Shown: positions 903 to 35,438 of the stretch, one piece after another
Position numbering within the stretch: position 1 is the first letter of the stretch
Layout: every line of letters begins with the position of its first letter
From: Fibrobacterota bacterium
GTDB taxonomy: Bacteria; Fibrobacterota; Chitinivibrionia; Chitinivibrionales; FEN-1185
Assembly: GCA_003165595.1 (NCBI GenBank)
Contig: PLWQ01000012.1
Span: 269,542-333,541, forward strand
Length of the DNA stretch: 64,000 nt
Direction of reading: 5' to 3'
Program-made: the position numbers and the translations under genes
The notes under the pieces: generated by a model
Told to the model about the DNA's origin: nothing
Seen by the model: only the letters and a program-made list of their open reading frames with translations
The model's database searches: none

Positions 903-1709
903 CTATTCGGTTACCGCAACAATGACCTGCGAGGCATTGAACACGGCGCATACCTCGCTGCCCAGGGAAAGCTTCATGCTTTCTGAGCTTTTTTTAGTGA
1001 TGGTGGCGACAATGGTCCTGTTGCCGTCGAGTGCGATCTTTATTTCGTTGTTCACAGCGCCCTTTGTTATCCAAATGACTTTTCCGCACAGACGGTTCAT
1101 GGCGCTCGTTTTGGTTTCTTCATCATCGACAACCATGAGGATCACGGCCGAAGCCTTGATAAGCGCCGTCGCTTTTCCGCCCTTCCTCAGGTCAAGCGCC
1201 CGAGCGCTTTCGTTTGTGATAACCGCCGTGATCGAGTCCTTTTCGCTGATGCGGAGCACGACTTCGGCTGATACCGGTCCACGCACTATCCTATCGATCG
1301 TGCCGGAAAACTGGTTGCGCGCGCTGGTTTTCACGATGAGGCCCCTTGCGAAATCGGTAAAAAAAGCAAAGTCGTTCTTTCTCCCGGATAGGGTTTTCGT
1401 GATAATTTCGAATTGCCGCTGCTGGTGACCGTACTCATCGAGGATCTTTTTACCGTAGTCCGACAGTCTGCATCCGCCACCGTGTCTGCCGCCCGTGCTG
1501 GTGACGACAAGCGATTTGGACGAAAGGTTGTTGAGCCTGTCGATAAGATCCCAGGCGGTCTTGTAGCTGATGCCGACTTCTTTGGCGGCCGAGGTGATCG
1601 ATCCGAGTTTGTCAACGCTTTGAAGAAGATCGATGGCGTTTTTTTCGAGCAGGTGGCGTCCACCGAACAGGAGCCACAGTGGGCCGAAAGAGGGGGAATT
1701 GGAGTTCAT
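903..1709 (-). CDS. modE: Molybdate-responsive transcriptional regulator ModE (N-terminal HTH plus two Mop/TOBE domains)
   Basis: 268 aa. The N-terminus has GSITSAAKEVGISYKTAWDLIDRLN (ModE-type HTH). The C-terminus has two repeats of the SARNQFxGTI...GPVSAEV / TSAMNRLCGKV molbindin motif. Confidence 0.9.
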   Translation of the reverse strand: MNSNSPSFGPLWLLFGGRHLLEKNAIDLLQSVDKLGSITSAAKEVGISYKTAWDLIDRLNNLSSKSLVVTSTGGRHGGGCRLSDYGKKILDEYGHQQRQFEIITKTLSGRKNDFAFFTDFARGLIVKTSARNQFSGTIDRIVRGPVSAEVVLRISEKDSITAVITNESARALDLRKGGKATALIKASAVILMVVDDEETKTSAMNRLCGKVIWITKGAVNNEIKIALDGNRTIVATITKKSSESMKLSLGSEVCAVFNASQVIVAVTE

Positions 1710-1887: not shown

Positions 1888-2316
1888 TTACTGCTTAATC
1901 GCCAGAATAACGTGCGAAGCTTTGACGAGCGCGCAAATGGTCTCGCCATTTTTCAGCTTCATGTCGTCAAGGCTTTTTTTGGTAATAGTGGCTACGATGG
2001 AATTCCCGTCGTCAAGATGTATGGTTACTTCGTCGGTCACCATGCCTTCGACGATTCCGTCCACCTTACCGCAGAACCGGTTCTTGGCGCTGGTCTTTAC
2101 ATGTTCGTCAGGTTCCATAAGAATTACCGACGAGGCCTTTATGAGAGCGGTAGCTGTATCGCCTTTCTTAAGGCCGAGGTATTGGGCGCTTTCGTTGGTG
2201 ATCACGGCTGTCACGCTGTTTTCTTTACTGATGTGCAAAACGACTTCAGCCGATACCGGACCGTGAACAACCTTTTCGATGACGCCCGTAAGTTGGTTGC
2301 GTGCGCTTGTTTTCAT
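1888..2316 (-). CDS. mop: Di-Mop molybdenum/tungsten-binding protein (molbindin, two TOBE/Mop domains)
   Basis: ORF 1888..2418 trimmed to ATG 2316, which is preceded by AAGGAG. Two repeats are present: MKTSARNQLTGVIEKVVHGPVSAEV and KTSAKNRFCGKVDGIVEG. They are paralogous to the ModE C-terminal half. Confidence 0.85.
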   Translation of the reverse strand: MKTSARNQLTGVIEKVVHGPVSAEVVLHISKENSVTAVITNESAQYLGLKKGDTATALIKASSVILMEPDEHVKTSAKNRFCGKVDGIVEGMVTDEVTIHLDDGNSIVATITKKSLDDMKLKNGETICALVKASHVILAIKQ

Positions 2317-2950: not shown

Positions 2951-5137
2951 TCAATCCCAATTGAAATTCGTATGGAGGTTGACAAAGAACGTACGTCCCT
3001 CCTCCGGATATCCTGCTTCTAAAAAGTAGTTCTTATCAGAGACATTCCTTACTCCCCCCTCGAATGACGCGTTTGCACCCAGAGGAACATTTAATGATGC
3101 ATTCCAGAGAGCGTACTCGGGAACCGTTGATCCTTGACTTGTCGTATAGCGCCAAGAATCGTATTCTGCACTTATAAGGGCATAGCATCCGGTGATCGGG
3201 GTATATTTGACATATCCGACGACTTTGCCCGGAGGTATGTCGGTAAATTTGATCGCCGGATGAGAGAGGTTGTGTTTGTCTAGATAGCTGGCGTTTGCGC
3301 CAATCTCCAACGCTTTCGCCCACTCAACATCGTGAAAAACCGTAGCGTCAAGGCTCAGTTCAACTCCCGGCATCTCGGCCTCACCGGTATTCTGCATCTG
3401 TGCACGTGCATTGGCATCCAGCACGCCTGCTTTAATCACGCTGTCAACCGACTGTATCGCATCATACAAATGCGTGTAGAAAAGGCTCACATGGCCGGAT
3501 AATGACCATTTCCCCAGATTCAATCCCGCATCATAGGCCGCCTCATAATTAACGGCATCTTCAGGTTGAAGAGTAGGATTGGGAATCGCCGTGCCCAGCT
3601 TGTAGGAATATCGATCCTTGAGCGTCGGGAACCTTGTCTTGCGCGCTATCGATATACTGGCATTCTGTGAACTATTGATATCAATTGTCGCCTTGCCCTC
3701 CGCATTAAAAGCTTGGGCGTTGTTGCTCGGGAAAGGGACTATCGAGTCAAAAACATTCTGAAATATCTTACCGTTGTAATGCGAGTAGAAATTGTCCGCT
3801 TCAACACTTGACCGGTTATCATAGGAAATTCCTCCTGTCAAGTTGAGAATCTTGAGAATAGTGGCGCCGTCCTCTAAACCAAGCGAAAACGTGTTGTCCT
3901 TGAAATGCCGTAAAGGCTCTTCCTGAAACGGTTTGGTGTTGGCTACCTTGACGGTGTCGTAGGCATTATGTTCTTCATGATAGTCTCGTTTGCCGTGAAG
4001 GGCGACACTCATCTCGTTTCCCGGAATAATGGTAGTGCCGAGTTCAACGGCGCCGCCTGCTGTCCAGTCATCATAATTGCTTTTAAAAGAAGACCTTTTC
4101 TTGAATGTCGAATAGGTCGAATCGTCACAAGCGAAAAGGCTGTTGCTCAACTCATTATAATAGACCGGAACCTTGAGGGAAAAATTATCGGAAAGCACGG
4201 TTTTTGAAGACAGGTAGACGCTCTGTTTGTCCCAATAGGGCCAATACCAGTAGCGTACCATGCCCGTGGGATCGACGGTCGGCGGTACACCTTTTTCCCC
4301 ATGTTGATTATCATAGGAGAGTGCATATTCATCACCTGGCGCCGGGTCCCACCCGATTTTTGCACTCGCCTTTGCATCACGGTGATATGAATTTGCGCGT
4401 AACCCGCCACTCTGGAGCACAGTCGGGGTAAATGCTTTCGACAACTCATAATTGCCTTTGTCAAGATCGGAAATCGAGCCCATCAGAAAAAAATTACCCA
4501 ATCGAGACCCTACGCCTATGTTCATGAGACTGCCGTTTAAATGGGGCATAAGCGTTGAGTCGCGCTTGGTGTCGACATACCCCATGGTGCCCACATCCGC
4601 TTGCAGTTCGAGCTTGTGCACCGGTTTCCGGGTAACCAGATTGATCGCTCCCCCAATTGCATTCGGGCCGTAGAGTACCGAAGAATATCCTTTTTCAACC
4701 TTTATTTCCGAATAATCGAACGTCGTGAAACGTCCCAGGTCGACATATCCGTCGTACGGCACATAAATCGGAACGCCGTCGATATAGAGGGGAACCGAGC
4801 GCAGATCAAATCCTCGGATATATACTTGCGACTCGTTTCTTGGACCGATATCGGAAACGTTTACTCCGGGAAGAAGCGAAAGTGCGCGGGCAACATCGGT
4901 GCGGCCGAATTCCTTCATTTGTGCACTGGTGACAACATCCTTATTCTGTTGTTTTTTCTCGCTGCCGGTGACAACAACGGTTCCAAGCGAAAAAACCGAT
5001 GATGTATCCTGCTTGAGCGCCGTGTCACGCTGACTTGTGCCGGTAACATCAGCGGCTCTCGATGGAAATGCATTTACTATAAGGCATAATGAAAACAGGA
5101 TTAAGGAGTGATTGGTTATTGGGTGCGCACGAGACAT
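2951..5137 (-). CDS. TonB-dependent outer-membrane receptor (plug plus 22-strand barrel type), substrate unknown
   Basis: 728 aa with a signal peptide. It has a TonB-box-like LGTVVVTG and plug motifs (IRGFDLRSVPLYIDGVPIY, YGPNAIGGAINLVT). The terminal aromatic barrel end is ...NLHTNFNWD. No N-terminal STN signalling extension is present. Confidence 0.9.
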   Translation of the reverse strand: MSRAHPITNHSLILFSLCLIVNAFPSRAADVTGTSQRDTALKQDTSSVFSLGTVVVTGSEKKQQNKDVVTSAQMKEFGRTDVARALSLLPGVNVSDIGPRNESQVYIRGFDLRSVPLYIDGVPIYVPYDGYVDLGRFTTFDYSEIKVEKGYSSVLYGPNAIGGAINLVTRKPVHKLELQADVGTMGYVDTKRDSTLMPHLNGSLMNIGVGSRLGNFFLMGSISDLDKGNYELSKAFTPTVLQSGGLRANSYHRDAKASAKIGWDPAPGDEYALSYDNQHGEKGVPPTVDPTGMVRYWYWPYWDKQSVYLSSKTVLSDNFSLKVPVYYNELSNSLFACDDSTYSTFKKRSSFKSNYDDWTAGGAVELGTTIIPGNEMSVALHGKRDYHEEHNAYDTVKVANTKPFQEEPLRHFKDNTFSLGLEDGATILKILNLTGGISYDNRSSVEADNFYSHYNGKIFQNVFDSIVPFPSNNAQAFNAEGKATIDINSSQNASISIARKTRFPTLKDRYSYKLGTAIPNPTLQPEDAVNYEAAYDAGLNLGKWSLSGHVSLFYTHLYDAIQSVDSVIKAGVLDANARAQMQNTGEAEMPGVELSLDATVFHDVEWAKALEIGANASYLDKHNLSHPAIKFTDIPPGKVVGYVKYTPITGCYALISAEYDSWRYTTSQGSTVPEYALWNASLNVPLGANASFEGGVRNVSDKNYFLEAGYPEEGRTFFVNLHTNFNWD

Positions 5138-5195: not shown

Positions 5196-5219
5196 CGTTA
5201 TATATTTTTCTATATTACG
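5196..5219. promoter_or_regulatory. ModE operator-like inverted repeat upstream of the TonB-dependent receptor gene
   Basis: CGTTATATA-TTTTTC-TATATTACG. It contains an exact TATAT-N7-TATAT and has ATCG/CGCT-type flanks. It lies 59-82 nt upstream of ATG 5137, in the 124-bp gap after the DUF364 gene. Confidence 0.65.
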
Positions 5220-5261: not shown

Positions 5262-6068
5262 TTACTCAGAACCTTTCAGATTCACTTCCGCAGCGCCGGA
5301 TCTGTCATCGAATAGTTTAGGGGAATCAGGCCTTGTGATGTTGATTTTCTGCAATGCGCCTTGCGGAGCATGCATAATGCTGCCTCCACCCATCCCGAAA
5401 TAGCGAAGAGTTTTGTTGACATCCATGATTCGTGAAGTGCCGAGCCGATGCAGACCCAATTTGAAGAGGCTGGGCGTGAGCGGCACCGTGGGCCCCATTA
5501 TGACACGGGTTGTTGCGTTAGGGGTCCTGCAAATTACCTCCCCGAACGTCCCGTTCACGAGCGTGAGCCCGGTCATGAATACCAGTTTCGCGCGGGAAAG
5601 CACGCCATGCGAATCGTCCCAACGGATGTCCCCCGGTCTGGGCAAAAGCTCCACAATCGATACCGGCCGCCCTTCATCGCGCCACATCTCCGCATCATGA
5701 AAATGGCCGATAAAGCAGGTTGGGCGTGTCTTGGTTTGCTCGGAAAACGGGTCTATTGCCGAGCTTACCGTGAATTCGGGAACCGGTGGGATCACGCATT
5801 TCAGGCAGGCCATGCCCACGGCAATCCGAAGAACGTCCGTCGAAGCGAGGTATTCTTGCGCGATTTCCGCCGCCTTCCGTCCAATCAGATCGCCCAGCCA
5901 GGTGTCCCGGGGATTTTCCGTGAGCCCGGGAGTGGCCGAGAAGCAGGTTGACATTTCATAGCGCCCGGCTTTGACCACCACCCAGTGATGGAAGAGATGG
6001 ATGTCCTCCATCAGAGTTGAATAGTCCGTGATAGCGGAAATGAGCGTTTCACGTACAATTGTTTCCAT
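5262..6068 (-). CDS. DUF364/DUF4213-family protein (putative heavy-metal chelation Rossmann-like fold), copy 2
   Basis: 268 aa. GHFHD...ELLPRPGDIRWDD...AKLVFMTGLTLVNGTFGEVI...VIMGPTVPLTP matches the DUF364 pattern. It is paralogous to 6111..6905. Confidence 0.7.
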   Translation of the reverse strand: METIVRETLISAITDYSTLMEDIHLFHHWVVVKAGRYEMSTCFSATPGLTENPRDTWLGDLIGRKAAEIAQEYLASTDVLRIAVGMACLKCVIPPVPEFTVSSAIDPFSEQTKTRPTCFIGHFHDAEMWRDEGRPVSIVELLPRPGDIRWDDSHGVLSRAKLVFMTGLTLVNGTFGEVICRTPNATTRVIMGPTVPLTPSLFKLGLHRLGTSRIMDVNKTLRYFGMGGGSIMHAPQGALQKINITRPDSPKLFDDRSGAAEVNLKGSE

Positions 6069-6110
6069 AAGATTTCTTCTTCTACAAGTCGAACAACAAT
6101 GTAACTCTAG

Positions 6111-6905
6111 TCACCTGACGTCGGCCGGATACAGCTTCACCATGTGCGCGCCCTGTTTGAAGATTGATCGGTCGCCTCCCTGCGCCACATGTTGCCAGAT
6201 CCTGTCGGCATCGATAACCGTGGTGCCGGCCAGGGACGCGATTCCTTTACTGAACCACAAAGGGGTCAGCGGGACACTCGGACCCACCATAACCATGCAG
6301 GCGTTGCGGCCCAATTCCATAAGCCGGGGCAATGTCTTGTTGGTAAACGTAACGCCGGTCATAAACAGGAAATCCTGATCTTCCAAAATGTATTCGCACG
6401 CCGGATCAGGGAAATCGCCCTCCAGGGGGTTCCGCTCCAGGATGGAAAGCCGGCACATGGTCGAAAGCTCGGCCAGGTCCGGAAAGTGACCCACCACGGT
6501 CACCTTCTTGCCGGTGAGCTCGGGTTTCATGACGATAAAGACACTCTCGTTGACCTGCGACTCCGGCTGAGTCTTCCAAACATTCGCCATAGTGGAAGGC
6601 GCATTGACATAGGCGTTGATCGCCGCAACACCAAGGGCCGCCTCATAGGGCTGCCACGACTTGACAAAAGCAGCGAGTTCACGCAACCTGCGGCCCTTGA
6701 AGGCTCCGGCGCCCGAAATGGAGTGGGAACCATGCGGAGGCGTCATGGCGACGCCAACCCCCACGGAACGCACGAGTGTCCAGTGAATGCCGACAAGCAC
6801 GTCGTCGACCACCAGGTCGTCGGGGATCAGCGAAATCAGTTGATCGTACAACTCCCACTTCGATGGAGTGGTTCCTGATGAATCGCGGGAATCCGAGTTC
6901 TTCAT
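6111..6905 (-). CDS. DUF364/DUF4213-family protein, copy 1
   Basis: 264 aa. VVGHFPDL...ILERNPLEGDFPDPACEYILEDQDFLFMTGVTFTNKTLPRLMEL...VMVGPSVPLTP. Its start overlaps the xdhC-like stop (ATGA). Confidence 0.75.
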   Translation of the reverse strand: MKNSDSRDSSGTTPSKWELYDQLISLIPDDLVVDDVLVGIHWTLVRSVGVGVAMTPPHGSHSISGAGAFKGRRLRELAAFVKSWQPYEAALGVAAINAYVNAPSTMANVWKTQPESQVNESVFIVMKPELTGKKVTVVGHFPDLAELSTMCRLSILERNPLEGDFPDPACEYILEDQDFLFMTGVTFTNKTLPRLMELGRNACMVMVGPSVPLTPLWFSKGIASLAGTTVIDADRIWQHVAQGGDRSIFKQGAHMVKLYPADVR

Positions 6906-7750
6906 TTCCCCTCCGATTTGTCAGGTGTGATGGTTCCCTCCTCATGCCAGGGAAATCTGAAATGCTCCGGCGTGCCTTTGTTGATGAGGAGGATTATCTG
7001 GGCCACTATTGCCAAAGCGATCTGCTCCGGAAGATTGTTGGCGATTTTCAAACCCACCGGCGAGTAGACCCTTTCATCAACATGTCCGCCCCTGGAACGG
7101 ATGTTGTTGACAACGATTCCGATTTTATTCTGGCTGCCGATCATGCCAATGTAGGGAACATCTTTGTTCCGAAGGATCTGTTCCAGACAAGTCTCGTCGT
7201 GTTTGTGCCCATGAGTCAGTATGACGCAGTAACTCGCACTGGTCAGCTTCATCGTCTCACTCAACGATTCATACGGTTTACATACACACTCGACTGCCGA
7301 AGGAAACCGTTCGGCGGATGAGAAATCTTCCCGGTTGTCAAACACGCGGTATGGCATATTGAGGATTTCGCAATACTTGGAAACCTTTTCACCGATATGG
7401 CCTCCGCCAAAAATCACGACTTCAGCCTCGGGCAAAACAGGCTCGATGAACACGGTTACCGATCCGCCGCAAAGGCCCTGCACCGTCCTGTCAGGTGTTA
7501 CCTGCCACAGGTCTCCCGCAAGAGAGAAATCCAAGCTGATGCAGCGGTTGTCTTTGATGGCCTTTAAAGCTTCTGCACGGCTGATGTGCTCAACCGGTCC
7601 TCCTCCGACCGAACCGGCAATCTCGTTCGCCACGCTCACCACCATCTTGGAGCCGACACCCCGTGGCACCGACCCTTCGGCCTTGACGATTGTGACGATC
7701 GCGCAGGCAATGCCCTTGTTCTTCCATTCATTCAAACTCTTGAGCCACAT
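6902..7750 (-). CDS. XdhC/CoxI-family accessory protein (molybdenum-cofactor handling family)
   Basis: ORF 6902..7789 trimmed to ATG 7750, which is preceded by AGGAG. The N-terminus has ACAIVTIVKAEGSVPRGVGSKMVV...GSVGGGPVE (XdhC_CoxI). A Rossmann-like VVIFGGGHIGEKV follows. Confidence 0.8.
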   Translation of the reverse strand: MWLKSLNEWKNKGIACAIVTIVKAEGSVPRGVGSKMVVSVANEIAGSVGGGPVEHISRAEALKAIKDNRCISLDFSLAGDLWQVTPDRTVQGLCGGSVTVFIEPVLPEAEVVIFGGGHIGEKVSKYCEILNMPYRVFDNREDFSSAERFPSAVECVCKPYESLSETMKLTSASYCVILTHGHKHDETCLEQILRNKDVPYIGMIGSQNKIGIVVNNIRSRGGHVDERVYSPVGLKIANNLPEQIALAIVAQIILLINKGTPEHFRFPWHEEGTITPDKSEGK

Positions 7751-7804: not shown

Positions 7805-8470
7805 TTACTCCATCCGATATTCCAACGGGAACTTCAAGATAACCCGTACCGGCGGATGGGGAAATGGGGCCGCCCGTCTGACCGTGGCAACGGCATCCCG
7901 ATCGAGTATCGAAGCCCCTGATCCCTTGAGTATCTCAATACTGTCAACGTCGCCGTCTTCGCGTACGCAGAATGAGAGTAAGACCGTGCCGGAGATTTTC
8001 ATTTCGAGCGCCATGGGCGGATAAACTGCTTTGCGGTAGATGATGTCCCGGATGTATTCGAACTGCTCTTTCAAATACCGCTGCCTCTCCCTCTCCCGCA
8101 CTTGGCCCGTGTCCTGCGGCATTCCTAGCGGGCCGATCGAGGCAACCTGGACCAACTGATTGTCAACTCCGCTTGGTTCGGCATCCGTGAACTGCGCCGT
8201 ATCGGCAATGATATCTTCGGCGGTTGTGTCGGGAAATTTCTCTTCTTCCTTAACCGGCGGAGGCGCGGGTCTTCTGGCGTGCCGAGGAGCCGGTTCCGGC
8301 ACGGGGACCGTTGATGCCGCCGGCTGTATCACCGGCGATTTCTCGATGTTAAAGTCGATCGTGAGCGTACGAGCCGCCGGAGCGGAAAACGCCGCAATGC
8401 CGGTAACGGCGGCGATAAAAACCCCATGGATCGTCAGCGACACAAGCGTTGCACGTTTCTGATACTTCAT
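7805..8470 (-). CDS. tonB: TonB energy transducer
   Basis: It has an N-terminal TM helix, a Pro-rich spacer (VPVPEPAPRHARRPAPPPVKEEE) and a C-terminal TonB domain (YPPMALEMKISGTVLLSFCVREDGDV...). Confidence 0.85.
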   Translation of the reverse strand: MKYQKRATLVSLTIHGVFIAAVTGIAAFSAPAARTLTIDFNIEKSPVIQPAASTVPVPEPAPRHARRPAPPPVKEEEKFPDTTAEDIIADTAQFTDAEPSGVDNQLVQVASIGPLGMPQDTGQVRERERQRYLKEQFEYIRDIIYRKAVYPPMALEMKISGTVLLSFCVREDGDVDSIEILKGSGASILDRDAVATVRRAAPFPHPPVRVILKFPLEYRME

Positions 8471-8847
8471 CGCACGGACTCCGTCTGCAAGCTGACCCGC
8501 GTGAACCCCCGGGTCTTGACGACATCGAGCACGTCCACGAACGTCTGAAGGGCAATTTTCCTGTCTGCGCGGATAAGGATCGGTGTGGACCGATCTATGT
8601 GCATGAGCGCCTCAAACAGCGCCCGTTGGCACACGGCAGAGGAGTTGTAGTAGATGGTGCCTGTGCGGTCGATCTCGATTGTCTGTATTCGCAGCAGATC
8701 CTCCCGGTTCTTGGATGCCTGCGGCAGCTGCAACGGGATGGATCCCGCCGCGACCAGCGTTGATGTGGTGAGCACGATGGTGAGCAGCACCAGCATCACG
8801 TCAACAAACGGTATCACGTTGATATAGTCGAATTCCTTTTCATCCAT
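8467..8847 (-). CDS. exbD: ExbD/TolR biopolymer transport protein
   Basis: ORF 8467..8970 trimmed to ATG 8847 ([26 protein letters not shown]...). It overlaps the exbB stop by 8 nt and the tonB start by 4 nt. Confidence 0.85.
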
Positions 8848-9262
8848 GATGAATGTCCCACTCAAGGAGCAGCCTTTTGACTTTCCGCAAAAGGAAATTA
8901 TAGAGTACCACGGACGGTATTGCGACAAGAAGGCCTGCCGCCGTCGCCTTGAGCGCCAGGGCAAGGCCAACCATGATCTTGCCCGTGTCCATGAATCCCT
9001 GGTTGCCCAGGGTGTAGAATGTCAACATGATGCCCAGCACCGTGCCCAGCAGGCCCACATACGGCGCGCTGCTGCCGATGGTGGCGATTACATGAACCCG
9101 GGACGTCAGCATGAGTTCCAGTTCCTTTTTGCTGCCAAAGTCGGCGGGCCGGATGCGGCGGTACGTGAGCCACCGTTCGATCGCCACGCTCACCGAGACT
9201 ACGCTGAGAAATACCAGAAGTCCGATGATGCCGAAGTCGATCCCGAATTTCAGCCATTCCAT
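8840..9262 (-). CDS. exbB: ExbB/TolQ/MotA-family proton channel
   Basis: 140 aa with three TM segments. The [17 protein letters not shown] signature is typical of ExbB/TolQ. Confidence 0.85.
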
Positions 9263-9292: not shown

Positions 9293-10375
9293 TCAATGCG
9301 CAAGCGCCCGTTCCAGCAGCTCCGCGCATTCCGTGTCATTGAGCTTTTTGAAATAGAACAGTTCGTAGAATCGCCTTGTTTCTGCGCGCATGTCGATCTT
9401 CATCCGGTCCGGATACAGCAGATTGGCCAGCCACCGCAGGCCGATAATACGGTTGACAGAGGGCGGCCGATCGAACCAGCCGAAGGGCAGTGATGGTATC
9501 TCGAATACCTTCTTGTTCTTTACGGCATCGAGGTTCCGCCACGCGGGGTCGGACATGATTTTTGCGAAGTTTTCCGTGCCGTGCGCGAACCCGTGGTCCA
9601 CCTGCACGATGATCATCTCCGGTTTCCACAGCAGAAGCTGCTCGAACGAGACTGCTGCGCGGCCGTACCCGCGCACCATGGGTACATCGGCCACGTTATC
9701 TCCGCCCACCATATCAAGCACCTCGGCATGCGTTGACCCCTTCGGGTCCGTTTCCAGCCCGTTGAGTCCTTCGGCGTAGTAAACCCGTATACGCTTCTGC
9801 GCCGGCATCGACGCAACGACAGCGGCGACCGTATTGAGGGTCTGCCGGCAATAACCGGCAAGGGTATCGGCGCGGCGCTCCTCACCAATGAGGCCGCCCA
9901 CAAAGCGGTACGACGTGTCAAGCGATGTCAGCCGACCGTCGACCATCACCACCGGCGTTCCAAGTTGTTTCTCCATGCGCTCCGCTGCGGAAACGTCTGT
10001 TTTGTCAATATACCCCATCGACAGAACGATGTCGGGTTTCGCCTTGATGATCACCTCGGGGTTACCGGTGGTACTTTTGCCGAACCACCCTCCGAGAAGC
10101 GGTTTTTTGTTGTACTCCTCAACAAGGAATCGTCGTTCGTCCGCGTCAGGGTTCCATGTTGTGCCGGTGATTTTGCCGGGCGCAAGTGTGTACATCAACA
10201 CCTCGCCCATCGGCGACGTCGAGTAGACGGAACGTATGGCAGAAGGAATAGTGACATGGCGGCCTGCCATGTCCACGATCGTTCTTACGGAAGGAGACCC
10301 GGCCCAGCAGGCGCCCGTTGCGAGCGCCGCGAAGACCAGCACCGGAGTCATTACGCACAGATTCTTGTTTGTCAC
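9293..10375 (-). CDS. Periplasmic binding protein of a FecB/BtuF-type (chelate) ABC importer
   Basis: 360 aa with a signal peptide. It has a class-III binding-protein layout (RIVSxxP..., KPDIVLSMG, WKPEMIIV, FEIPSLPFGWFDRPPSVNRIIGLRW). Confidence 0.85.
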   Translation of the reverse strand: MTNKNLCVMTPVLVFAALATGACWAGSPSVRTIVDMAGRHVTIPSAIRSVYSTSPMGEVLMYTLAPGKITGTTWNPDADERRFLVEEYNKKPLLGGWFGKSTTGNPEVIIKAKPDIVLSMGYIDKTDVSAAERMEKQLGTPVVMVDGRLTSLDTSYRFVGGLIGEERRADTLAGYCRQTLNTVAAVVASMPAQKRIRVYYAEGLNGLETDPKGSTHAEVLDMVGGDNVADVPMVRGYGRAAVSFEQLLLWKPEMIIVQVDHGFAHGTENFAKIMSDPAWRNLDAVKNKKVFEIPSLPFGWFDRPPSVNRIIGLRWLANLLYPDRMKIDMRAETRRFYELFYFKKLNDTECAELLERALAH

Positions 10376-11148
10376 TTAGCACCTCCCATGGCCGGAACGC
10401 ACAAAAATCGGCCTTCCGCCACTGAAATAATATCAACGTCGATCCCATACATTCTTTTGAGCAGCGTACAGGTTAGCACTTCTTTGGGTGGACCGTCGGC
10501 CGCGATGCGGCCGTCCAGCAGCGCTATCACCCGGGTGGCGCACGCGAATGCGTGGTCCGGGACATGGGTCGTGATCATCACTCCCATGTCTTGGGTTGCA
10601 AGTTCACGGATAAGATTCAGCGCCCGGATCTGGTTGCCGAAATCAAGGTGCAACGTGGGTTCGTCCATGATGAGAAATTGCGGCGACTGCGCCAGCGCGC
10701 GCGCGATCAGCACCAGTTGGCGTTCACCCCCGCTAATCTGCGCGTAGTTGCGGTCGCACAGATGACCGATATGCAGCAGGTCCATGACGCGCGCCGCTTC
10801 GCGCCTGTCATCCGCCGAGGGAATGGAGAAGGCGCCGATAAAGGGCGTCCTTCCCATGAGCACGACGTCCATGGCGCTGAAGGGAAATGGCGGGATGTGG
10901 ATCTGTGGGACATAGGCCAGCGTCCGAGCTCGTTCCCGCGTTGTGAACGTGCAGGCGGACCGCTGATCGAATTGGATATCTCCTCGCGAGGGAATGAGCC
11001 CAAGAATCGCCTTGAAAAGCGTGGTCTTGCCCGAGCCGTTGGGTCCCAGCAAGCAGACGACCTCGCCCGAATGCAACGATGCGCTGATTTCCGAAATAAC
11101 CGTGCGCGACCCGTATCCCGCCGATATGTTGCTTATCGCCAGTTTCAT
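10372..11148 (-). CDS. ABC transporter ATP-binding protein (FecE/BtuD-like)
   Basis: This is the real 258-aa product inside ORF 10372..12042 (MKLAISNISAGY...). It has Walker A GPNGSGKTT, signature ISGGERQ and Walker B LIMDEPT. ATGA overlaps occur at both ends. Confidence 0.9.
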   Translation of the reverse strand: MKLAISNISAGYGSRTVISEISASLHSGEVVCLLGPNGSGKTTLFKAILGLIPSRGDIQFDQRSACTFTTRERARTLAYVPQIHIPPFPFSAMDVVLMGRTPFIGAFSIPSADDRREAARVMDLLHIGHLCDRNYAQISGGERQLVLIARALAQSPQFLIMDEPTLHLDFGNQIRALNLIRELATQDMGVMITTHVPDHAFACATRVIALLDGRIAADGPPKEVLTCTLLKRMYGIDVDIISVAEGRFLCVPAMGGAK

Positions 11149-12308
11149 ACCCACCCCCTGCGCCCCCGGGCGAGCAGGAATACGAAAAACGGCGCGCCGA
11201 TGATCGCGGTCAGGATGCCGATGGGTATCTCGATGGGGAACGCGACGCGCGCCACGGTGTCGACGACGAGTAGGAACGTACCGCCCAGGAGCAGCGATGC
11301 GGGGAGCAGCACCGGGAAAGAGGGGCCCACCAGCATACGCGCCAGGTGCGGAACCACCAACCCGATCCAGCCGATCATACCGCTGATGGACACCGCCGCG
11401 GCGGTCATGAGCGTTGAAGACACGATCGCGATCGCCCGTATCCGACCCGCGTCCACTCCCATGGCTTTGGCTTCCTCGTCGCCGAACGAGAGTACGTTGA
11501 TCCGCCACCGCACGAGGAGTAAAGGGATTGCGCCCGCTACGGTCGCGATTGCGGCGATGCGGGCGTCGGACAAATTGACCGAGGCCAGGCTTCCCATGAG
11601 CCAATAGGTGATCGCGGGGAGCTTTGAGTATGGATCGGCGACATACTTGACAAGCGAAAGCAAGGCGGAAAACAGGGTGCCGGTCACGATGCCGCACAGT
11701 ACGAGCGTCAATGTCTTTTCTCCGCGCTTTCCGACAAAGGCGGACAGCATGACCGTGGCAAACACCGAGACAAGGCCAAAGCCAAAGGAAAAAAGCTGGA
11801 TCCCGACCACCCCGACCGAAAGCAGTATCGCCAGGGCCGCACCGAACGCCGATCCCGCGGTGACACCCAGAAGAGAAGGATCCACCATGGGGTTGCGGAA
11901 TATACCTTGGTAGCACGCGCCAGAACCCGACAGGGCCATGCCGACAAGAACCGCCGCACACATGCGCGGCAGACGGACATGGAACAAAACGGTGCTGCTT
12001 GCACCGAACACCATGGTGTCGTGGTGCCATAGTGATTTCCACACCAAGTGCAGCAGTTCACCGATACTGACGGGGTAACGTCCAACTGTCAAGGCTGCCA
12101 CGGCCATCACGCACAGGGCGATCGCCAGGCCAGCCAGAACCAGGGGTCCCTTTGGCCCCACAGAATTGACCGACTGGTTTGTTGTGCCGCCGTTCGTTCC
12201 TTTGTGCGTCTCTGCGGTCCCGGCAGTTGCCAGATGAGAATTAGCCGGTTCCGGACCATGCGGCTGATCATTCTTGACAGGCGGTTTACTCGTGGTGTTC
12301 GGTATCAT
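11145..12308 (-). CDS. FecCD/BtuC-family ABC permease
   Basis: ORF 11145..12833 trimmed to ATG 12308 (MIPNTTSKPP...). It has about 9-10 TM segments. GILTAIIGAPFFVFLLARG at the C-terminus is typical of FecCD. Confidence 0.85.
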   Translation of the reverse strand: MIPNTTSKPPVKNDQPHGPEPANSHLATAGTAETHKGTNGGTTNQSVNSVGPKGPLVLAGLAIALCVMAVAALTVGRYPVSIGELLHLVWKSLWHHDTMVFGASSTVLFHVRLPRMCAAVLVGMALSGSGACYQGIFRNPMVDPSLLGVTAGSAFGAALAILLSVGVVGIQLFSFGFGLVSVFATVMLSAFVGKRGEKTLTLVLCGIVTGTLFSALLSLVKYVADPYSKLPAITYWLMGSLASVNLSDARIAAIATVAGAIPLLLVRWRINVLSFGDEEAKAMGVDAGRIRAIAIVSSTLMTAAAVSISGMIGWIGLVVPHLARMLVGPSFPVLLPASLLLGGTFLLVVDTVARVAFPIEIPIGILTAIIGAPFFVFLLARGRRGWV

Positions 12309-12322
12309 CGAAAGTTGATGTG

Positions 12323-12874
12323 TCAATGTGCCGTGTAGTAGCTGCCAGACGAGCAGGCCATGCATACCGGCCCTTTTTCCCCGATTGTATCCTTGCCGTC
12401 GAAGACCTTTTCTCCGCACTCGACGCAGGTGACAACCCGCTTTGGCTTTCCGGGCATCTCTTCGGGCCGCAGGTTGACCTTCACTTCCCGCCATGCGAGC
12501 ATCTCTTCGTCCGGGATGTAAAGTGCCTGTCGAACCGCATCTTCGTCTTCGCCGTTGATCGTGCGATCCATGGCAACGTTTAGACGCCATGAATGGTTCG
12601 TGGTGACATTCATGAATGTCGCGGCCATCCTGCCGTAGTCCTTGAGTTTGAAGCTCCGCCGCCCCAGGCGCGTACCGGTGACCGTCTGGATGGCGTCGGC
12701 GATGCAGCGATCGTTCTCCACCACGACGATCAGGTCCTTGTAGGTGGACGGCGCCGCCAGGGACAACCCCTTGACGGCAAGGCGCACTCCCAGCACCTGC
12801 CCCATGCAGAGGTGACCGTGGAATGTGACGCATTTGTCCAGAAGCTCGCCGAGTTCTTCCTTTGTTTTGCTCAT
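12323..12874 (-). CDS. FmdE-family protein with C-terminal zinc ribbon
   Basis: ORF 12323..12892. MSKTKEEL is the likely start at 12874. It has the FHGHLCMGQVLG motif (FmdE FHGHxCPG type) and a C-terminal CVECGEKV...CMAC ribbon. Confidence 0.8.
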   Translation of the reverse strand: MSKTKEELGELLDKCVTFHGHLCMGQVLGVRLAVKGLSLAAPSTYKDLIVVVENDRCIADAIQTVTGTRLGRRSFKLKDYGRMAATFMNVTTNHSWRLNVAMDRTINGEDEDAVRQALYIPDEEMLAWREVKVNLRPEEMPGKPKRVVTCVECGEKVFDGKDTIGEKGPVCMACSSGSYYTAH

Positions 12875-12991
12875 GATATTCAGCCTCATCACACTAAGGT
12901 TATGTTACCTCATTGAAATACCTTCGGAAACAGCTCATGAATTATGTTTACCCCGAAATTGACAGAATAAGAAGACAATGTCTTGCAGTTT

Positions 12992-13015
12992 CGTAATATA
13001 CCTATTTATACAACG
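12992..13015. promoter_or_regulatory. ModE operator-like inverted repeat upstream of the fmdE-ABC-exbBD-tonB-xdhC-DUF364 operon
   Basis: CGTAATATA-CCTATT-TATACAACG, flanked by TT/AA. The minus-strand reading TGTAT-N7-TATAT has one mismatch to the core. It lies 118-141 nt upstream of ATG 12874. Its left half is identical to a half-site of the 5196-5219 box. Confidence 0.55.
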
Positions 13016-13139: not shown

Positions 13140-13910
13140 TCAAGAAATGGCATCGTAGGTTGCCTTCACGGCGGCGACTAGAATAACGACAGCGAACACG
13201 CGTTGGAGCATACAGCAAGAGATCTTCTTCTCTGCTAGCGTCGCGCCGCAAAGTCCGCCGATGAGCGCAGCCCCTGCCAACGGCAAGACGATACTCAACT
13301 CAATTCCACCTCTAATTCCATGTGCTGCTAACCCAATGCCTGACAATGCTAATACCAGGACGGAATTCATTGCAGCCATCTGTTTTGGTCCTGCCAATCC
13401 GAGAAATAGAATGAGCGGCCCGAGAAACACGCCGCCCCCAATTCCCAGGAAACCTGAAAGGAACCCGATAACAAGCCCTGCCGGGATTCCTATTAAGAAA
13501 AGACGAAGACGCCCCGGATCTTTTTCCTGCTCTTGAGCATTTGGCGCAGCTCGAAACATCGCGATGGCGGCGATTGCAAGGGTTGCCGCCAATAATGCAA
13601 AAAATATCTTCCGATCGGCTGTTATGAATCCACCCAGGAATGCAGCCGGCATGGCGGGTAATAAAAACGGCAGGATAAGTCTCCAATTCAAACGTCCGGC
13701 CAAACCGAAACGCAGTAATGCCGCCCCCGTCACTACAATGTTTAACAACAAGACAGTTGGCGTCATTGCAGCAGCGGACATTCCACAGAGGGACAAGATG
13801 GCAAGATATCCTGTGCCGCCACCGAGGCCGACGGATGCATATGCCCCGGCAACAACCATAACCAAAGGCACTAGAAGTAGAAAAGTCCCAAGCGTCAATG
13901 TATCTGACAT
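13140..13910 (-). CDS. TauE/SafE (TSUP) family anion permease
   Basis: 256 aa with about 8 TM segments. It shows a Gly-rich internal duplication (GLGGGTGYLAILSL / GIGGGVFLGPLILFL). Confidence 0.85.
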   Translation of the reverse strand: MSDTLTLGTFLLLVPLVMVVAGAYASVGLGGGTGYLAILSLCGMSAAAMTPTVLLLNIVVTGAALLRFGLAGRLNWRLILPFLLPAMPAAFLGGFITADRKIFFALLAATLAIAAIAMFRAAPNAQEQEKDPGRLRLFLIGIPAGLVIGFLSGFLGIGGGVFLGPLILFLGLAGPKQMAAMNSVLVLALSGIGLAAHGIRGGIELSIVLPLAGAALIGGLCGATLAEKKISCCMLQRVFAVVILVAAVKATYDAIS

Positions 13911-13933
13911 TTCATTCTCGCATTACCATTAAG

Positions 13934-14830
13934 TTATTTGCTTGCTTTTTGCTTGCCGGTCACCGCAAGGGGAAAGTTGGTCTGGCGTTTGAATTTTTGT
14001 ACGCCGGAATTGGCTATGTACTCCTGTATTTTCGGGGAAGTCAGATACCCTATGAAAGTCATTGCATCAACGTAATGGGCGTCCGGATATTTCTGCGGGT
14101 TTGCAGCCAGGACCTCATAGGCGGTTACCAGCTTATTGTCCATGTTACCGTCGACCATGACGTTCATATCAAGGGTTTCCTGCTGTTGTATGAATGAAGG
14201 ATAATGGACAATCGTATATCCCCTCTTTCTATTCGCTATCACGAGGGTCGCGTCCGTGCCGGCATTTGTTGTGATATACCAGTCGCCCTTTGGCTCAATC
14301 TTCGCCAGTTTCCACATTTTCATTTCCAATCCGTAAGTGCCGGAGTTGTCTCCCCGGGAGAAAAACAGCGCTTTCTTCTTTGCTATAATTTTGAGCGCCT
14401 CGGTCGGGTCTTTCATTCCCCTTATACCCGCCGGGTCTTCCTTGGGACCGACAATCGCGAAGATCGAATACATCACTTCTCTTAAATTGACCAAATATCC
14501 GTCGGCTACGAGTTTGTTTTCAATATCCTTTTCGTGCCCTATAAAAACATCTATTGGTTGCGCACTGTCGGAACGCATGAGTTTGTCCCCGTCTCCGGTG
14601 CACAAGTTTAATTTCTTAATGGGTATGTTGTACTCTTTTGTGAACATGCCGATGAGTTCATCCGGCAGTTCGGTGGAGCAAAGGGTGGCTGGGAAAATTA
14701 CTGCGAGCGTTTTTGAATCTCTTGATTCCGGAGGGGTTGGTTGAGCCGACATCACGGGTAAACCCGCCAAGGATATCAGGACTGCTGAAAAACATAACAA
14801 CCTGATACCTGAGACTTTGCCTCTAAGCAT
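13934..14830 (-). CDS. TupA-like periplasmic substrate-binding protein (PBP-like_2 family), orphan
   Basis: 298 aa with a signal peptide. FFSRGDNSGTYGLEMKMWK resembles the SRGDxSGTHxxExxLW motif of tungstate-binding TupA. The N-terminal anion-binding TTTS/DSGL motif is not conserved (ATLCSTELPDEL). No tupBC genes are adjacent. Confidence 0.6.
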   Translation of the reverse strand: MLRGKVSGIRLLCFSAVLISLAGLPVMSAQPTPPESRDSKTLAVIFPATLCSTELPDELIGMFTKEYNIPIKKLNLCTGDGDKLMRSDSAQPIDVFIGHEKDIENKLVADGYLVNLREVMYSIFAIVGPKEDPAGIRGMKDPTEALKIIAKKKALFFSRGDNSGTYGLEMKMWKLAKIEPKGDWYITTNAGTDATLVIANRKRGYTIVHYPSFIQQQETLDMNVMVDGNMDNKLVTAYEVLAANPQKYPDAHYVDAMTFIGYLTSPKIQEYIANSGVQKFKRQTNFPLAVTGKQKASK

Positions 14831-15878
14831 GAATCCTCCCTGTTTTTACAGAACAGATTTGATTATTTCCGTTCAAAGGCCCGAATCCCTGTTCGTTGAG
14901 CCCTTTTTCCTGCCAGAAAACACGCACTTTGAATTTATTTTCGTTAGCCTCTTTGCCGAAAAGCTGCAGGTGATCCGCCTTTTTCCCAGGGGTATATTCA
15001 GAAGCGTAAATACAATCGCAGAGGGACTGAACAGCCGCATATATCTTCTGCTTGACGGCAGTACTCTTTTCGGATTCTGATTCGACAGCCGTCATTTGTT
15101 GCTGATACGTTATTCTGCCATTTTCAGCTAATACCGTCTTTTGCCCTTTATTCAGTACTATTTCTTCTAAGGGATATTTAATTACTAATTTCCCCTCAAA
15201 CACGATGCAGGTCGTTTCCGTTTTTAATACACCATTTTCCAGTCTCGCGACCGTTTGTATCTTTGAATTTGTATTCCTTGAAAGTAATAATCCGTCGGGA
15301 GTCTCAATCTGAAGTTCTTTATCTCCCGACAGAAGCGATATTTCCCCACGCGATAATGCTATGTGCCGTGAGCCTTTAACCCTGACCATCGTATTATGGT
15401 GAATCTGTAATTCGTTTTTGCTTTCCAGACTTATGGCTGCAGTGGTACTGTCTCCCGTATATAACTCGTCGCCCGACTTAATATTTTCAAATTGCGCGAT
15501 TTTGAACCTTTCCGACAGATTTTCAACATACCCTATATTCTTGTTGGCCAGGCACGCGTATGACAATATGGCAACCAGCAGCACAAAAAAGCCGGCAAGA
15601 GCAGGCCTTAGCTTGGGGTTGAATAGGGGTCTGAATATGGAACGAGGTTCTTTACTTGTTGATTGATTAAGACTATCCAATATTCTCTTTTCAATATTCG
15701 GCAGAACATCTTCAGGAGCCTTCTCCAGCGAACCTTTCTGGGAGCCGAGAGCCAAGATAAACTGGTGGAAATTCTTGCATTCTTTGCAATCACTCAGGTG
15801 TTCTTGTATTTCGATCGGCACAACAGTATCACTAAGATCATTCTCCTTTAGATACTTTTCAAAAATATCACATTTCAT
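14823..15878 (-). CDS. Anti-sigma factor (zf-HC2 N-terminus, one TM, FecR-like periplasmic domain)
   Basis: HLSDCKECKNFH is a zinc-finger motif. A TM helix follows at ALAGFFVLLVAILSY, then a beta-rich FecR-like region. Its stop overlaps the next gene's start (ATGCTTAG). Confidence 0.75.
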   Translation of the reverse strand: MKCDIFEKYLKENDLSDTVVPIEIQEHLSDCKECKNFHQFILALGSQKGSLEKAPEDVLPNIEKRILDSLNQSTSKEPRSIFRPLFNPKLRPALAGFFVLLVAILSYACLANKNIGYVENLSERFKIAQFENIKSGDELYTGDSTTAAISLESKNELQIHHNTMVRVKGSRHIALSRGEISLLSGDKELQIETPDGLLLSRNTNSKIQTVARLENGVLKTETTCIVFEGKLVIKYPLEEIVLNKGQKTVLAENGRITYQQQMTAVESESEKSTAVKQKIYAAVQSLCDCIYASEYTPGKKADHLQLFGKEANENKFKVRVFWQEKGLNEQGFGPLNGNNQICSVKTGRIHA

Positions 15879-15935
15879 ATGGAGTATCCCCTATAATGAA
15901 TAGACACCGAAGACCCATCAACGGTTACAACTATT

Positions 15936-18305: not shown

Positions 18306-18785
18306 CGTAGCCCGGCCTCCTGTCGTAAAGAGCACGAATTTCCTGTCCAGCAGTACATGGCGCAGTTGACCGCGCCCCTCGTCAGAGTATCGTTAACCTT
18401 CAATGAAAAATATAGGTGTTTGCGGACGCCATCGTCAAGAAAGGAAAAACCAGGCATGTGGTTTTTTCTCAAAGCCTATTCTTTGGCGGTGGCCCGCCAA
18501 AGGTTCCGTGCTTCTCCATGTCCAAGCCAACGGGAATATAGCCCTGGATTATGAATTTCCCTGAGCAGGCATTGAAATAAATGAACAAAGGATACAAGCA
18601 GGAGCGGAAGTGAAAAACCCCGCCGCACACCGCGACTACGACTGCATATTTACCTACAGGAGTAGCCGCTTTGCGAACTGCGGGGCATCTTCCATCCATA
18701 AGGAAGAAGAACTTCATGGTCGTTTGCTAACCCCGGAGCACCACCACTACGGCTGCGAACCTTCGGGGTTAGTAAACGTTGGAAT

Positions 18786-31966: not shown

Positions 31967-31981
31967 GGCGGTTCTTCCCCG

Positions 31982-32269: not shown

Positions 32270-32301
32270 TTCCCGCGATGCGTCTGCGTTCACGACCGCC
32301 C

Positions 32302-35431: not shown

Positions 35432-35438
35432 GGGTACC

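Follow-up and report, generated by a model that had tools for sequence, protein, structure and literature searches.

In Haemophilus influenzae the MolBC-A system (HI1470/HI1471/HI1472) is a type II ATP-binding cassette (ABC) importer that carries molybdate and tungstate (PMC4031551), and in Escherichia coli the operators of the regulator ModE have the consensus ATCGNTATATA-N6-TATATANCGAT (PMC545781). DUF364 proteins and FmdE-domain proteins were tied by genome context to transporters of molybdenum or tungsten (Mo/W), vanadium or iron in 2010 (PMC2954201; PMC2954224) and have been 'metal-linked' orphans since then. Dhaf4260, a DUF364 protein, has a deep pocket in an enzyme fold (PMC2954201); in Methanococcus maripaludis a modABC operon with a DUF364 gene is cofit with nifH (10.1101/2024.03.05.583561); and the only characterized DUF364 enzyme, Orf5 of the bonnevillamide cluster of Streptomyces, is a 4-methylazetidinecarboxylate synthase that cyclizes a derivative of S-adenosylmethionine (SAM), 4''-methyl-SAM, with release of methylthioadenosine (MTA) and with Tyr61 and Glu204 as catalytic residues (PMC12930334). 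Here we describe an operon on the minus strand of a 64,000-nucleotide (nt) stretch of Fibrobacterota DNA (contig PLWQ01000012.1, positions 269,542 to 333,541; the whole 64-kb stretch is called the window below), in which the genes for an XdhC-like protein and for two DUF364 proteins, DUF364-A and DUF364-B (A and B below), lie between tonB and the gene for a TonB-dependent receptor. The reading that we favour, with confidence a little better than even, is that the operon is an uptake route used in Mo/W starvation and that FmdE, the XdhC-like protein, A and B would form a cytoplasmic processing and hand-off line leading to pterin-cofactor assembly. The three central genes are as follows.

6902-7750, minus strand: XdhC-like gene, 282 amino acids (aa), with an XdhC_CoxI N-terminal domain and an XdhC Rossmann domain; member of a compact subfamily that accompanies DUF364-B.
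6111-6905, minus strand: DUF364-A gene, 264 aa, of the Dhaf4260 type; its start overlaps the XdhC-like stop.
5262-6068, minus strand: DUF364-B gene, 268 aa, of a diverged subfamily that partners the XdhC-like protein; last gene of the operon.

The gene structure given in the original prediction (coordinates, an ATGA overlap, a 42-nt gap and the position between tonB and the receptor gene) holds throughout. An AAGGAG ribosome-binding site stands 6 nt before the ATG of the XdhC-like gene (at 7750), and public gene callers return an identical 282-aa product; the TGA of this gene (6904-6902) overlaps the ATG of DUF364-A (6905-6903), as read from the sequence; and the spacer between A and B is exactly 42 nt (6069-6110). 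All Pfam matches exceed the gathering cut-offs: XdhC_CoxI 61.4 bits and XdhC_C 113.6 bits for the XdhC-like protein, DUF4213 (PF13938) 76.7 bits and DUF364 (PF04016) 111.6 bits for A, and DUF4213 25.1 bits (cut-off 23.5) and DUF364 91.6 bits for B. None of the three proteins has an N-terminal hydrophobic segment, a signal peptide or a membrane segment, and without an N-terminal hydrophobic segment all three are expected to be cytoplasmic. As had been proposed, the two DUF364 copies are paralogues, 24% identical over 233 columns (BLASTP E=3e-14, far beyond chance), and the four motifs named at the outset occur in both, one version per copy (GHFPD/GHFHD, ERNPLEGD/ELLPRPGD, FMTGVTFTNKT/FMTGLTLVNGT and MVGPSVPLTP/MGPTVPLTP). 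The further suggestion that the duplication is ancient, not recent, also stands: among the top 120 relatives of each copy no score to the own type is below 220 bits and none to the other type exceeds 66 bits (relatives of B reach 220 bits or more with B and no more than 62 with A; relatives of A reach 258 bits or more with A and no more than 66 with B). Judged by these scores A and B are separate orthologous groups, that is, two old subfamilies and not a local duplication.

The identity of the metal was missed in the original prediction. It is indicated by palindromes that resemble ModE operators.

12992-13015, minus-strand reading CGTTGTATA-AATAGG-TATATTACG: ModE-operator-like palindrome, 18 of 22 positions, 100-123 nt upstream of the FmdE start.
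5196-5219, CGTTATATA-TTTTTC-TATATTACG: ModE-operator-like palindrome that matches the consensus at 20 of 22 positions when its flanks are counted; it lies 59-82 nt before the start of the receptor gene.
727-750: weaker third ModE-like palindrome, 40-63 nt upstream of a minus-strand gene with its ATG at 687.

The chance expectation for the operator pattern is 0.01 per window. The window and 46 related loci (numbered with the prefix L) together contain 26 sites, where shuffled sequence gives 1-4; the majority stand immediately in front of FmdE, receptor, DUF364-B or ModE genes, and they are found in Fibrobacterota, Verrucomicrobiia, a metagenome-assembled genome (MAG) of Wallbacteria and others. 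Orthologous sites precede FmdE in L006 and L008 and the receptor orthologue in L006, L009, L011, L042 and L044, L008 has a site in the divergent intergenic region between the TonB-dependent receptor and ModE genes, and the TupA-like orthologue of L006 also carries a box. The palindrome at 12992-13015 follows directly on a hairpin and T-run that end the TauE gene and is the probable promoter/operator of the operon. A consensus scan for sigma-70 promoters and terminators gave counts no better than shuffles and so says nothing for this lineage, and an Rfam scan found no cobalamin or molybdenum cofactor (Moco) riboswitch in the window or in seven related loci. The combination expected of a ModE regulon, operator matches in promoter regions (here predicted operators) and a full-length ModE (903-1709), is present. 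Because of the predicted ModE operators, the ModE, Mop and TupA-like neighbours and the lack of a riboswitch, the locus appears to respond to Mo/W and not to iron or B12; the metal of the operon is most likely molybdenum/tungsten, and the predicted repression by ModE most likely amounts to induction under Mo/W starvation.

By the same evidence, we consider it highly improbable that the operon serves ordinary uptake of an iron siderophore, haem or cobalamin, with the three genes along as unrelated passengers. The receptor, FecCD and Peripla_BP_2 genes carry annotation generic enough to allow it and the best sub-threshold NCBIfam matches of the receptor are to haem and siderophore classes, but what stands before the genes are predicted ModE operators and not Fur boxes or a cobalamin riboswitch, the operon has ModE, Mop and TupA-like genes as neighbours, and its accessory genes stay with the transporter in different phyla. 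The receptor itself matches no curated substrate class, every NCBIfam match being far below its cut-off; the TonB-B12 model gives 79.8 bits against a cut-off of 599.7, well short of what would mark cobalamin (Btu) uptake. The gene behind the box at 727-750, starting at ATG 687, encodes a signal-peptide protein that runs off the window, with no Pfam match in the 229 available residues; it may be another Mo/W-regulated envelope protein. A porin is present in the Mo cluster of L049.

Which proteins work together was judged from conserved neighbourhoods. A scan of genomes with a profile of the B subfamily gave 41 loci, which were annotated by phmmer with the window's own proteins. The XdhC-like subfamily occurs in the same locus as B in 32 of the 41 informative loci and is directly adjacent in 28, with carriers in Fibrobacterota, Syntrophus, Desulfobacterales, Geopsychrobacteraceae, Holophaga, Victivallales, MAGs labelled Bacteriovoracaceae and Methanospirillum; the two genes overlap in L003 and L050. 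B stands without an XdhC-like gene in seven loci of Verrucomicrobiia, one of Wallbacteria (L042) and one contig end. Pairwise distances of B and the XdhC-like protein correlate with r=0.90 (32 loci), against 0.73 for a known interacting pair (binding protein and permease) and 0.62, 0.56 and 0.20 for B with receptor, permease and binding protein, respectively, although it should be noted that all such correlations are confounded by shared phylogeny. The value of 0.90 is consistent with a tight partnership; the two are probably an old, co-inherited functional pair, for which we infer a physical complex. No fusion of DUF364 with XdhC of the 'Rosetta-stone' kind was seen among the matches listed.

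DUF364-A keeps other company. It is present in only about eight of the 41 loci, often adjoining FmdE (L012, L022, L041 and L050), and in Firmicutes and Binatia it occurs without B or the XdhC-like protein, its neighbours being FmdE, TrmO_N, ModABC, TOBE, TupA and MoeA; A-type copies with Mo/W neighbours were found in Dehalobacter, Desulfofundulus and Binatia. The original prediction had proposed a heteromer of the two DUF364 copies. This is not supported, as B is without A in most of the related loci and A is without B or XdhC in Firmicutes and Binatia; an obligate A/B heteromer was rejected on this distribution and is unlikely. Nor is the trio conserved as a unit, as had been supposed: the conserved pairs are B with the XdhC-like protein and A with FmdE or ModABC. 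What does fit the conserved neighbourhoods is the proposed transport-coupled role in metal handling. In one locus of Desulfomonilia the FmdE, A, B and XdhC-like genes are contiguous, the last three each overlapping the next, and receptor, importer and ExbBD-TonB genes follow. Loci of Methanospirillum have MoeA, FdhD, formate dehydrogenase, ModABC, TOBE and FmdE nearby.

By homology, the favoured reading can be set out in steps. The receptor (2951-5137), energized by TonB-ExbBD, would bring a Mo/W species across the outer membrane, and the class III binding protein and a type II (BtuCD/MolBC-like) ABC importer would carry it into the cytoplasm, where FmdE, the XdhC-like protein, A and B, all encoded on the same transcript, would receive or process the metal and pass it towards assembly of the pterin cofactors (Moco and its tungsten counterpart, Wco). 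There would be two working pairs, B with the XdhC-like protein and A with FmdE. A carrier that binds a pterin cofactor or a nucleotide is the most likely role of the XdhC-like protein, as suggested by its homology to Moco chaperones. B is most likely an enzyme with an adenosyl ligand (SAM or a nucleotide) that acts on the imported species or on a cofactor intermediate, as judged from the pocket analysis of Dhaf4260, the SAM-derivative chemistry of Orf5 and the SAM-related neighbours and methyltransferase fusion described below. A would be a second, separately specialized enzyme, which elsewhere accompanies FmdE and ModABC. What was observed is the gene structure, the family memberships and folds, the ModE-type operator sequences and the neighbourhoods that recur in several phyla; the cytoplasmic hand-off, the classes of ligand and the chemical nature of the imported species are what we infer. 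The other genes are listed here.

12323-12892, minus strand: FmdE-domain protein with a Cys-rich zinc-ribbon-like C-terminal tail, first gene of the operon (Pfam PF02663 90.9 bits; Protein Data Bank (PDB) 2gvi, 3d00, 2glz).
11145-12308, minus strand: FecCD-family permease (type II, BtuC-like ABC), 266-302 bits to PF01032 genes in L001/L002/L003; start refined.
10372-11148, minus strand: ABC ATPase, start overlapping the permease stop, ~200 bits to PF00005 genes in related loci.
9293-10375, minus strand: class III periplasmic binding protein (Peripla_BP_2) with signal peptide, Pfam PF01497 66.3 bits.
8840-9262, minus strand: ExbB (MotA/TolQ/ExbB family), 195-198 bits to PF01618 genes in L001, L012 and L040.
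8467-8847, minus strand: ExbD, 138-162 bits to PF02472 genes; start refined.
7805-8470, minus strand: TonB, Pfam TonB_C 61.5 bits, TIGR01352 63.3 bits.
2951-5137, minus strand: TonB-dependent outer-membrane receptor, Pfam Plug 83 bits and barrel 83.4 bits.
1888-2316, minus strand: di-Mop (2x TOBE) cytoplasmic molybdate/tungstate-binding protein, TOBE 117.7 bits in 2 stretches, TIGR00638 134.7 bits; start refined.
903-1709, minus strand: full-length ModE (helix-turn-helix and 2x TOBE/Mop), PRK10676 E=1e-45, ModE_repress domain 88 bits, Mop 122.6 bits.
13934-14830, minus strand: TupA-like periplasmic oxyanion-binding protein, upstream of the operon, PBP_like_2 51 bits, NF041772 TupA 110.6 bits, below the 400-bit cut-off.

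Transcription runs in the order FmdE, permease, ATPase, binding protein, ExbB, ExbD, TonB, XdhC-like, DUF364-A, DUF364-B, with the majority of junctions overlapping or less than 60 nt apart; a 124-nt gap separates DUF364-B from the receptor gene, with di-Mop and ModE further downstream. Alternative open reading frames (ORFs) of 556 and 562 aa (10372-12833) that overlap or extend the FecCD and ATPase genes were discarded as composition artefacts, the true starts being 12308 and 11148. Upstream of the operon lie a TauE-family permease, the TupA-like binding protein and a pair resembling an extracytoplasmic function sigma factor and its anti-sigma factor. The TupA-like gene is a peripheral part and its tie to the operon is uncertain. 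It has no TupBC partner (region 13140-16511), adjoins the TauE/SafE-family permease gene and has a start overlapping the end of the gene for a 351-aa protein without Pfam match, which in turn follows the gene for the extracytoplasmic function sigma factor; this region could be a separate device for sensing or taking up tungstate. Further away (17553-18335 and 19005-19655) are genes for a multihaem cytochrome c with MtrC/MtrF-like and Geobacter CxxxxCH motifs and, as its neighbour, a secreted protein with a cupredoxin-like C...H...M motif and no Pfam match at 1e-4. A haem-copper oxidase cluster (30174-35611; UbiA-family prenyltransferase, COX2, COX1 and SCO1/SenC) sets the Fibrobacterota-like host apart from most of the other organisms with the module, as it indicates that this host is no strict anaerobe.

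In most lineages B and the XdhC-like protein accompany type II ABC importers, as in the window. In Verrucomicrobiia and some others B ends an operon for an importer of the energy-coupling factor (ECF) type, preceded by a ModE-like box and comprising a fused double ATPase, a CbiQ/EcfT protein and a hydrophobic 190-210-aa candidate S component. In Desulfofundulus a DUF364 copy lies inside a ModABC operon. DUF364 proteins thus go with importers that work by three different mechanisms and in no case with an obvious exporter or biosynthetic cluster, which argues for a role after import rather than in synthesis of a secreted chelator. In the Verrucomicrobiia locus L045 (4410-10744), as also in L016, L020, L024, L028, L030, L035 and L041, the ModE-like box is followed by genes for three secreted or prepilin-like proteins, a hydrophobic protein of ~200 aa, the double ATPase, CbiQ/EcfT and DUF364-B. 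The set is a candidate Mo/W importer of the ECF type and in most cases lacks the XdhC-like protein.

One explanation, of which we are doubtful, takes up the metal-release idea of the original prediction and makes it specific to Mo/W: it is that an organic Mo/W chelate (a 'molybdophore' or 'tungstophore') is taken up and that A/B and the XdhC-like protein break or modify its ligand to release the metal. Chelates are classically taken up by such a combination of TonB-dependent receptor, class III binding protein and FecCD permease, and the receptor orthogroup is kept even with an inner-membrane importer of the ECF type: it persists in several such loci, which are included in the 11 related loci with receptor orthologues above 340 bits. 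In Dehalobacter ModABC and a type II importer share one cluster, which suggests two different Mo species, and the methyltransferase neighbours and fusion of DUF364 point to chemistry on an organic substrate; DUF364 has an enzyme fold with a deep pocket (PMC2954201). However, no chelator, chelator biosynthesis genes or conserved exporter was identified with the module, copies of DUF364 are found elsewhere within plain ModABC operons for oxyanions, the XdhC family is known for cofactor chaperones and not for ligand-degrading enzymes, and the literature search found no Mo/W metallophore from these mostly anaerobic lineages.

Ancestry of the XdhC-like protein supports the hand-off part of the favoured reading. 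XdhC-family proteins are cofactor chaperones, R. capsulatus XdhC binding Moco; XdhC serves xanthine dehydrogenase and FdhD formate dehydrogenase. The protein of the window has both Pfam domains and the fold of 2WE7 and 3ON5 that define the XdhC/CoxI family (phmmer 4.9e-22 to 2we7), and its predicted structure (predicted local distance difference test, pLDDT, 88.9) matches 2WE7/2WE8/3ON5 (Foldseek E=1.7e-20 to 2we8) and beyond these only NAD/ATP-binding Rossmann domains of the KTN/RCK type. The CGG and Rossmann motifs are invariant. The 'GGC' motif of XdhC was dropped as a marker as it carries no signal: the Cys of the mycobacterial structure is Pro in the window protein, and the position is variable across the subfamily and in a relative next to a Mo enzyme. 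This relative, 47% identical, adjoins a xanthine-dehydrogenase-type Mo enzyme (Ald_Xan_dh/MoCoBD) and so supports descent of the XdhC-like protein from cofactor chaperones. Judged from the ORFs of at least 220 aa in the window, the protein is not encoded beside a target Mo/W enzyme; DUF364-B and importers are its neighbours in 32 loci.

There are two other explanations. It is unlikely, in our view, that the proteins are enzyme-specific maturation factors that are merely co-regulated with uptake and insert or modify the cofactor of Mo/W enzymes encoded elsewhere. For this speak the fold and Pfam membership of the XdhC-like protein, the homologue beside Ald_Xan_dh/MoCoBD, the naming of FmdE from fmd operons (PMC2954224) and the Methanospirillum pair near formate dehydrogenase, FdhD and MoeA; against it, B and the XdhC-like protein follow importers (type II ABC or ECF, with the receptor) across the 41 loci and not one Mo/W enzyme, and there is no Mo/W enzyme among the ORFs of at least 220 aa in the window. 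Distinctly unlikely is a salvage pathway in which the receptor and importer take up a ready-made pterin cofactor (molybdopterin, Moco, Wco or a dinucleotide form) from anoxic surroundings, the XdhC-like protein receives it and DUF364-B trims or remodels it. Moco binding is known in the XdhC family (the R. capsulatus protein), cobalamin salvage has the same pattern of a receptor joined to a type II ABC or ECF importer, and most of the named lineages are anaerobes, in which labile Moco could persist. We know of no bacterial Moco importer, which counts against salvage. The structure 2nap, which we take to be that of a bis-molybdopterin guanine dinucleotide enzyme, is relevant here. It is listed among the best matches in the pocket comparison by the Joint Center for Structural Genomics (PMC2954201), but this similarity of the Dhaf4260 pocket is weak (Z 3.5). 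Caenorhabditis elegans offers a precedent for uptake of foreign Moco (PMC7849362). De novo synthesis would coexist with salvage in Methanospirillum, where MoeA and ModABC are adjacent, there is no Moco riboswitch in the window or the seven related loci, and the window organism, with its haem-copper oxidase, is not strictly anoxic.

As for the DUF364 proteins, A is 41% identical to Dhaf4260 (PDB 3L5O; phmmer E=2.7e-47 over residues 16-252) and B is remote from it (E=1e-7). An AlphaFold model of B (18 orthologues; pLDDT 90.4) matched 3L5O in Foldseek with a template-modelling (TM) score of 0.73-0.81 and 3NPG with 0.67-0.75, and gave no other significant match, so that the two-domain fold of 3L5O, enolase-N-like and Rossmann-like, is found in A by phmmer and in B by its model. 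The Rossmann-like domains originally predicted for all three proteins are thereby corroborated, the B model matching 3L5O with the TM score just given and the XdhC-like model matching 2WE8/3ON5 with E ~1e-20. The B subfamily is small, with 13 clusters (50% identity, E <=1e-30) among 604 DUF364-like clusters. A and B have in common a family core of the G-H-F loop, E148, P151, D155, T174, N at 180, T182 and GPxxP (Dhaf4260 numbering), to which each subfamily adds an invariant cysteine pair (C151/C170 in A, C88/C118 in B) and B three additional invariant arginines. Of the Dhaf4260 pocket residues G129, H130, E148, T174 and T182 are retained in both, D180 is Asn in both subfamilies, G37 and N83 are retained in A only, and G39 and R42 are in neither window protein. 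The idea that one copy is a degenerate pseudo-enzyme was rejected, since both retain the core residues, each with its own invariant set; the two look like two specificities, and neither resembles a dead partner. At position 149, which adjoins the invariant W150, the window copy of B has Arg, in contrast to the His of 94% of the aligned members of its subfamily. NCBIfam has no family for A or B, and Pfam describes DUF364 as 'putative heavy-metal chelation'.

Several observations connect DUF364 with SAM. Distant members are fused to a class I SAM methyltransferase (P0492), to a fragment of a Cys/Met-metabolism pyridoxal-phosphate enzyme (P0469) and to a PD-(D/E)XK domain (P0451), and the first of these fusions matches the methyltransferase genes that recur beside DUF364/XdhC-like loci. 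In a Geopsychrobacteraceae MAG (L005) several methyltransferases, two receptors and two FecCD importers surround the DUF364/XdhC-like genes, together with a 591-aa protein (1149-2924) that has a Radical_SAM domain and a weak Peripla_BP_2 match. In Syntrophus aciditrophicus (L002, 11935-12741) B and XdhC-like are followed by a gene whose product has a TrmO_N domain and, at its C terminus, a weak match to FmdE, the same TrmO-FmdE fusion as has been reported in some archaea (PMC11237513); in Dehalobacter TrmO_N and FmdE are separate genes beside DUF364-A. Observations of this kind could be accommodated if the DUF364 proteins used SAM to make an azetidine- or nicotianamine-like ligand for secretion, with the XdhC Rossmann domain as a reductase and the TauE-family protein as exporter. 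Orf5 cyclizes a SAM derivative (PMC12930334), SAM-related neighbours recur (class I methyltransferases, TrmO_N and radical SAM), and a TauE-family permease adjoins the operon in the window, L006 and L041. Nevertheless we think this very unlikely, as the module ends importer operons (type II ABC, ECF and ModABC) in many phyla, and those loci have no conserved exporter or further biosynthetic enzymes. Moreover, we know of no redox activity in XdhC-family proteins, and amino-carboxylate ligands bind Mo/W oxyanions poorly.

A number of findings weigh against a Mo/W uptake route with cytoplasmic hand-off. The ModE sites are predicted solely from the E. coli consensus, and several deltaproteobacterial and archaeal loci have neither such a site nor a Moco riboswitch. 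The pairing of a TonB-dependent receptor with an importer of the type II ABC or ECF kind is typical of uptake of an organic cofactor or chelate, not of a free oxyanion. The nearest match of the binding protein in the PDB is the uncharacterized 4pag (5e-50), and the nearest characterized protein, MolA HI_1472, scores 1.3e-14, hardly better than the 1.3e-13 of 4hn9, annotated for an iron complex; the MolA similarity was dropped as an indicator of substrate, the score not being discriminating. The XdhC-like protein falls below the equivalog cut-offs of TIGR02964 (XdhC proper; 123.0 against 161.6 bits) and NF045664 (XdhC_rel_AOR, the aldehyde-oxidoreductase maturation factor; 199.6 against 350 bits). 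Finally, the window has no Mo/W enzyme among the ORFs surveyed above, and simple metal hand-off does not explain the recurrent SAM-methyltransferase neighbours and the DUF364-methyltransferase fusion.

How microbes of low-oxygen, sulfidic habitats acquire Mo/W is an open question (PMC11484787). These metals are needed for formate dehydrogenases, formylmethanofuran dehydrogenase, aldehyde oxidoreductases and nitrogenase. The locus offers a concrete system, with defined predicted operators, a receptor, an importer and four soluble proteins, which extends from Fibrobacterota to Syntrophus, Holophaga and Methanospirillum and narrows the problem to two partnerships, DUF364-B with the XdhC-like protein and DUF364-A with FmdE. 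It is probably a system of many, mostly anaerobic, microbes in which the three proteins handle a scarce metal after import, and many transporters annotated for an 'iron complex' or 'B12' in these lineages are probably Mo/W systems. A bolder claim, advanced tentatively and one we rather doubt, is that the operon is a TonB-dependent, predicted-ModE-controlled route for a non-oxyanion Mo/W species, with B and the XdhC-like protein as a new two-protein machine that would receive it and remodel it so that it can enter Mo/W enzymes directly; such a species might be an organic complex of Mo/W, a thio-species or a ready-made cofactor of the molybdopterin type that is scavenged where oxygen is low. If true, it would be the first bacterial or archaeal uptake-and-salvage pathway for such species and would give a first function to the metal-linked DUF364 proteins and, by association, to FmdE.

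The association of DUF364 and FmdE with Mo/W/V/Fe transporters was already known in 2010. Our literature search found no paper on XdhC with DUF364 and TonB, nor on a TonB-dependent Mo/W receptor, and the TonB-dependent, ModE-boxed architecture, the partnership of B with the XdhC-like protein, the split into partner-specific subfamilies and the ECF-type variant were likewise not found in the literature searched. Among known systems, the locus shares with MolBC-A a type II (BtuCD-like, FecCD-family) importer with a class III binding protein, but MolA aligns only to the C-lobe of the window binding protein, and MolBC-A works with low affinity and has not been described with a receptor, TonB, FmdE, XdhC-like or DUF364 partner, whereas the window locus has predicted ModE operators. 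With BtuB-TonB-BtuFCD (and ECF-CbrT) it shares the receptor, TonB-ExbBD, class III binding protein and type II importer, with ECF alternatives, but it lacks a cobalamin riboswitch, its receptor is far below the BtuB cut-offs and its regulation is of the ModE type. Full-length ModE, di-Mop and palindromes matching ATCGNTATATA-N6-TATATANCGAT recall the ModE/ModABC/Mop regulon of E. coli type, from which it differs in having a receptor with a type II ABC importer and four cytoplasmic accessory proteins in place of ModABC. The XdhC-like protein has both Pfam domains, the fold and the CGG/Rossmann motifs of the XdhC/PaoD/CoxF Moco chaperones and of NCBIfam XdhC_rel_AOR, but is shorter (282 aa), lies below the equivalog cut-offs and is paired with DUF364-B and importers, not with a Mo/W enzyme. 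Orf5 belongs to the same family as A and B and suggests an adenosyl or SAM ligand for the Rossmann-like domain, but it comes from a secondary-metabolite cluster, whereas A and B belong to a transport operon. Of the solved structures, Dhaf4260 (3L5O) is the close relative of A (41% identity), and the B model superposes on both it and PH1506 (3NPG); B nevertheless differs from Dhaf4260 in G37, G39, R42 and N83, which were called conserved in 2010, and has an invariant set of cysteines and arginines of its own.

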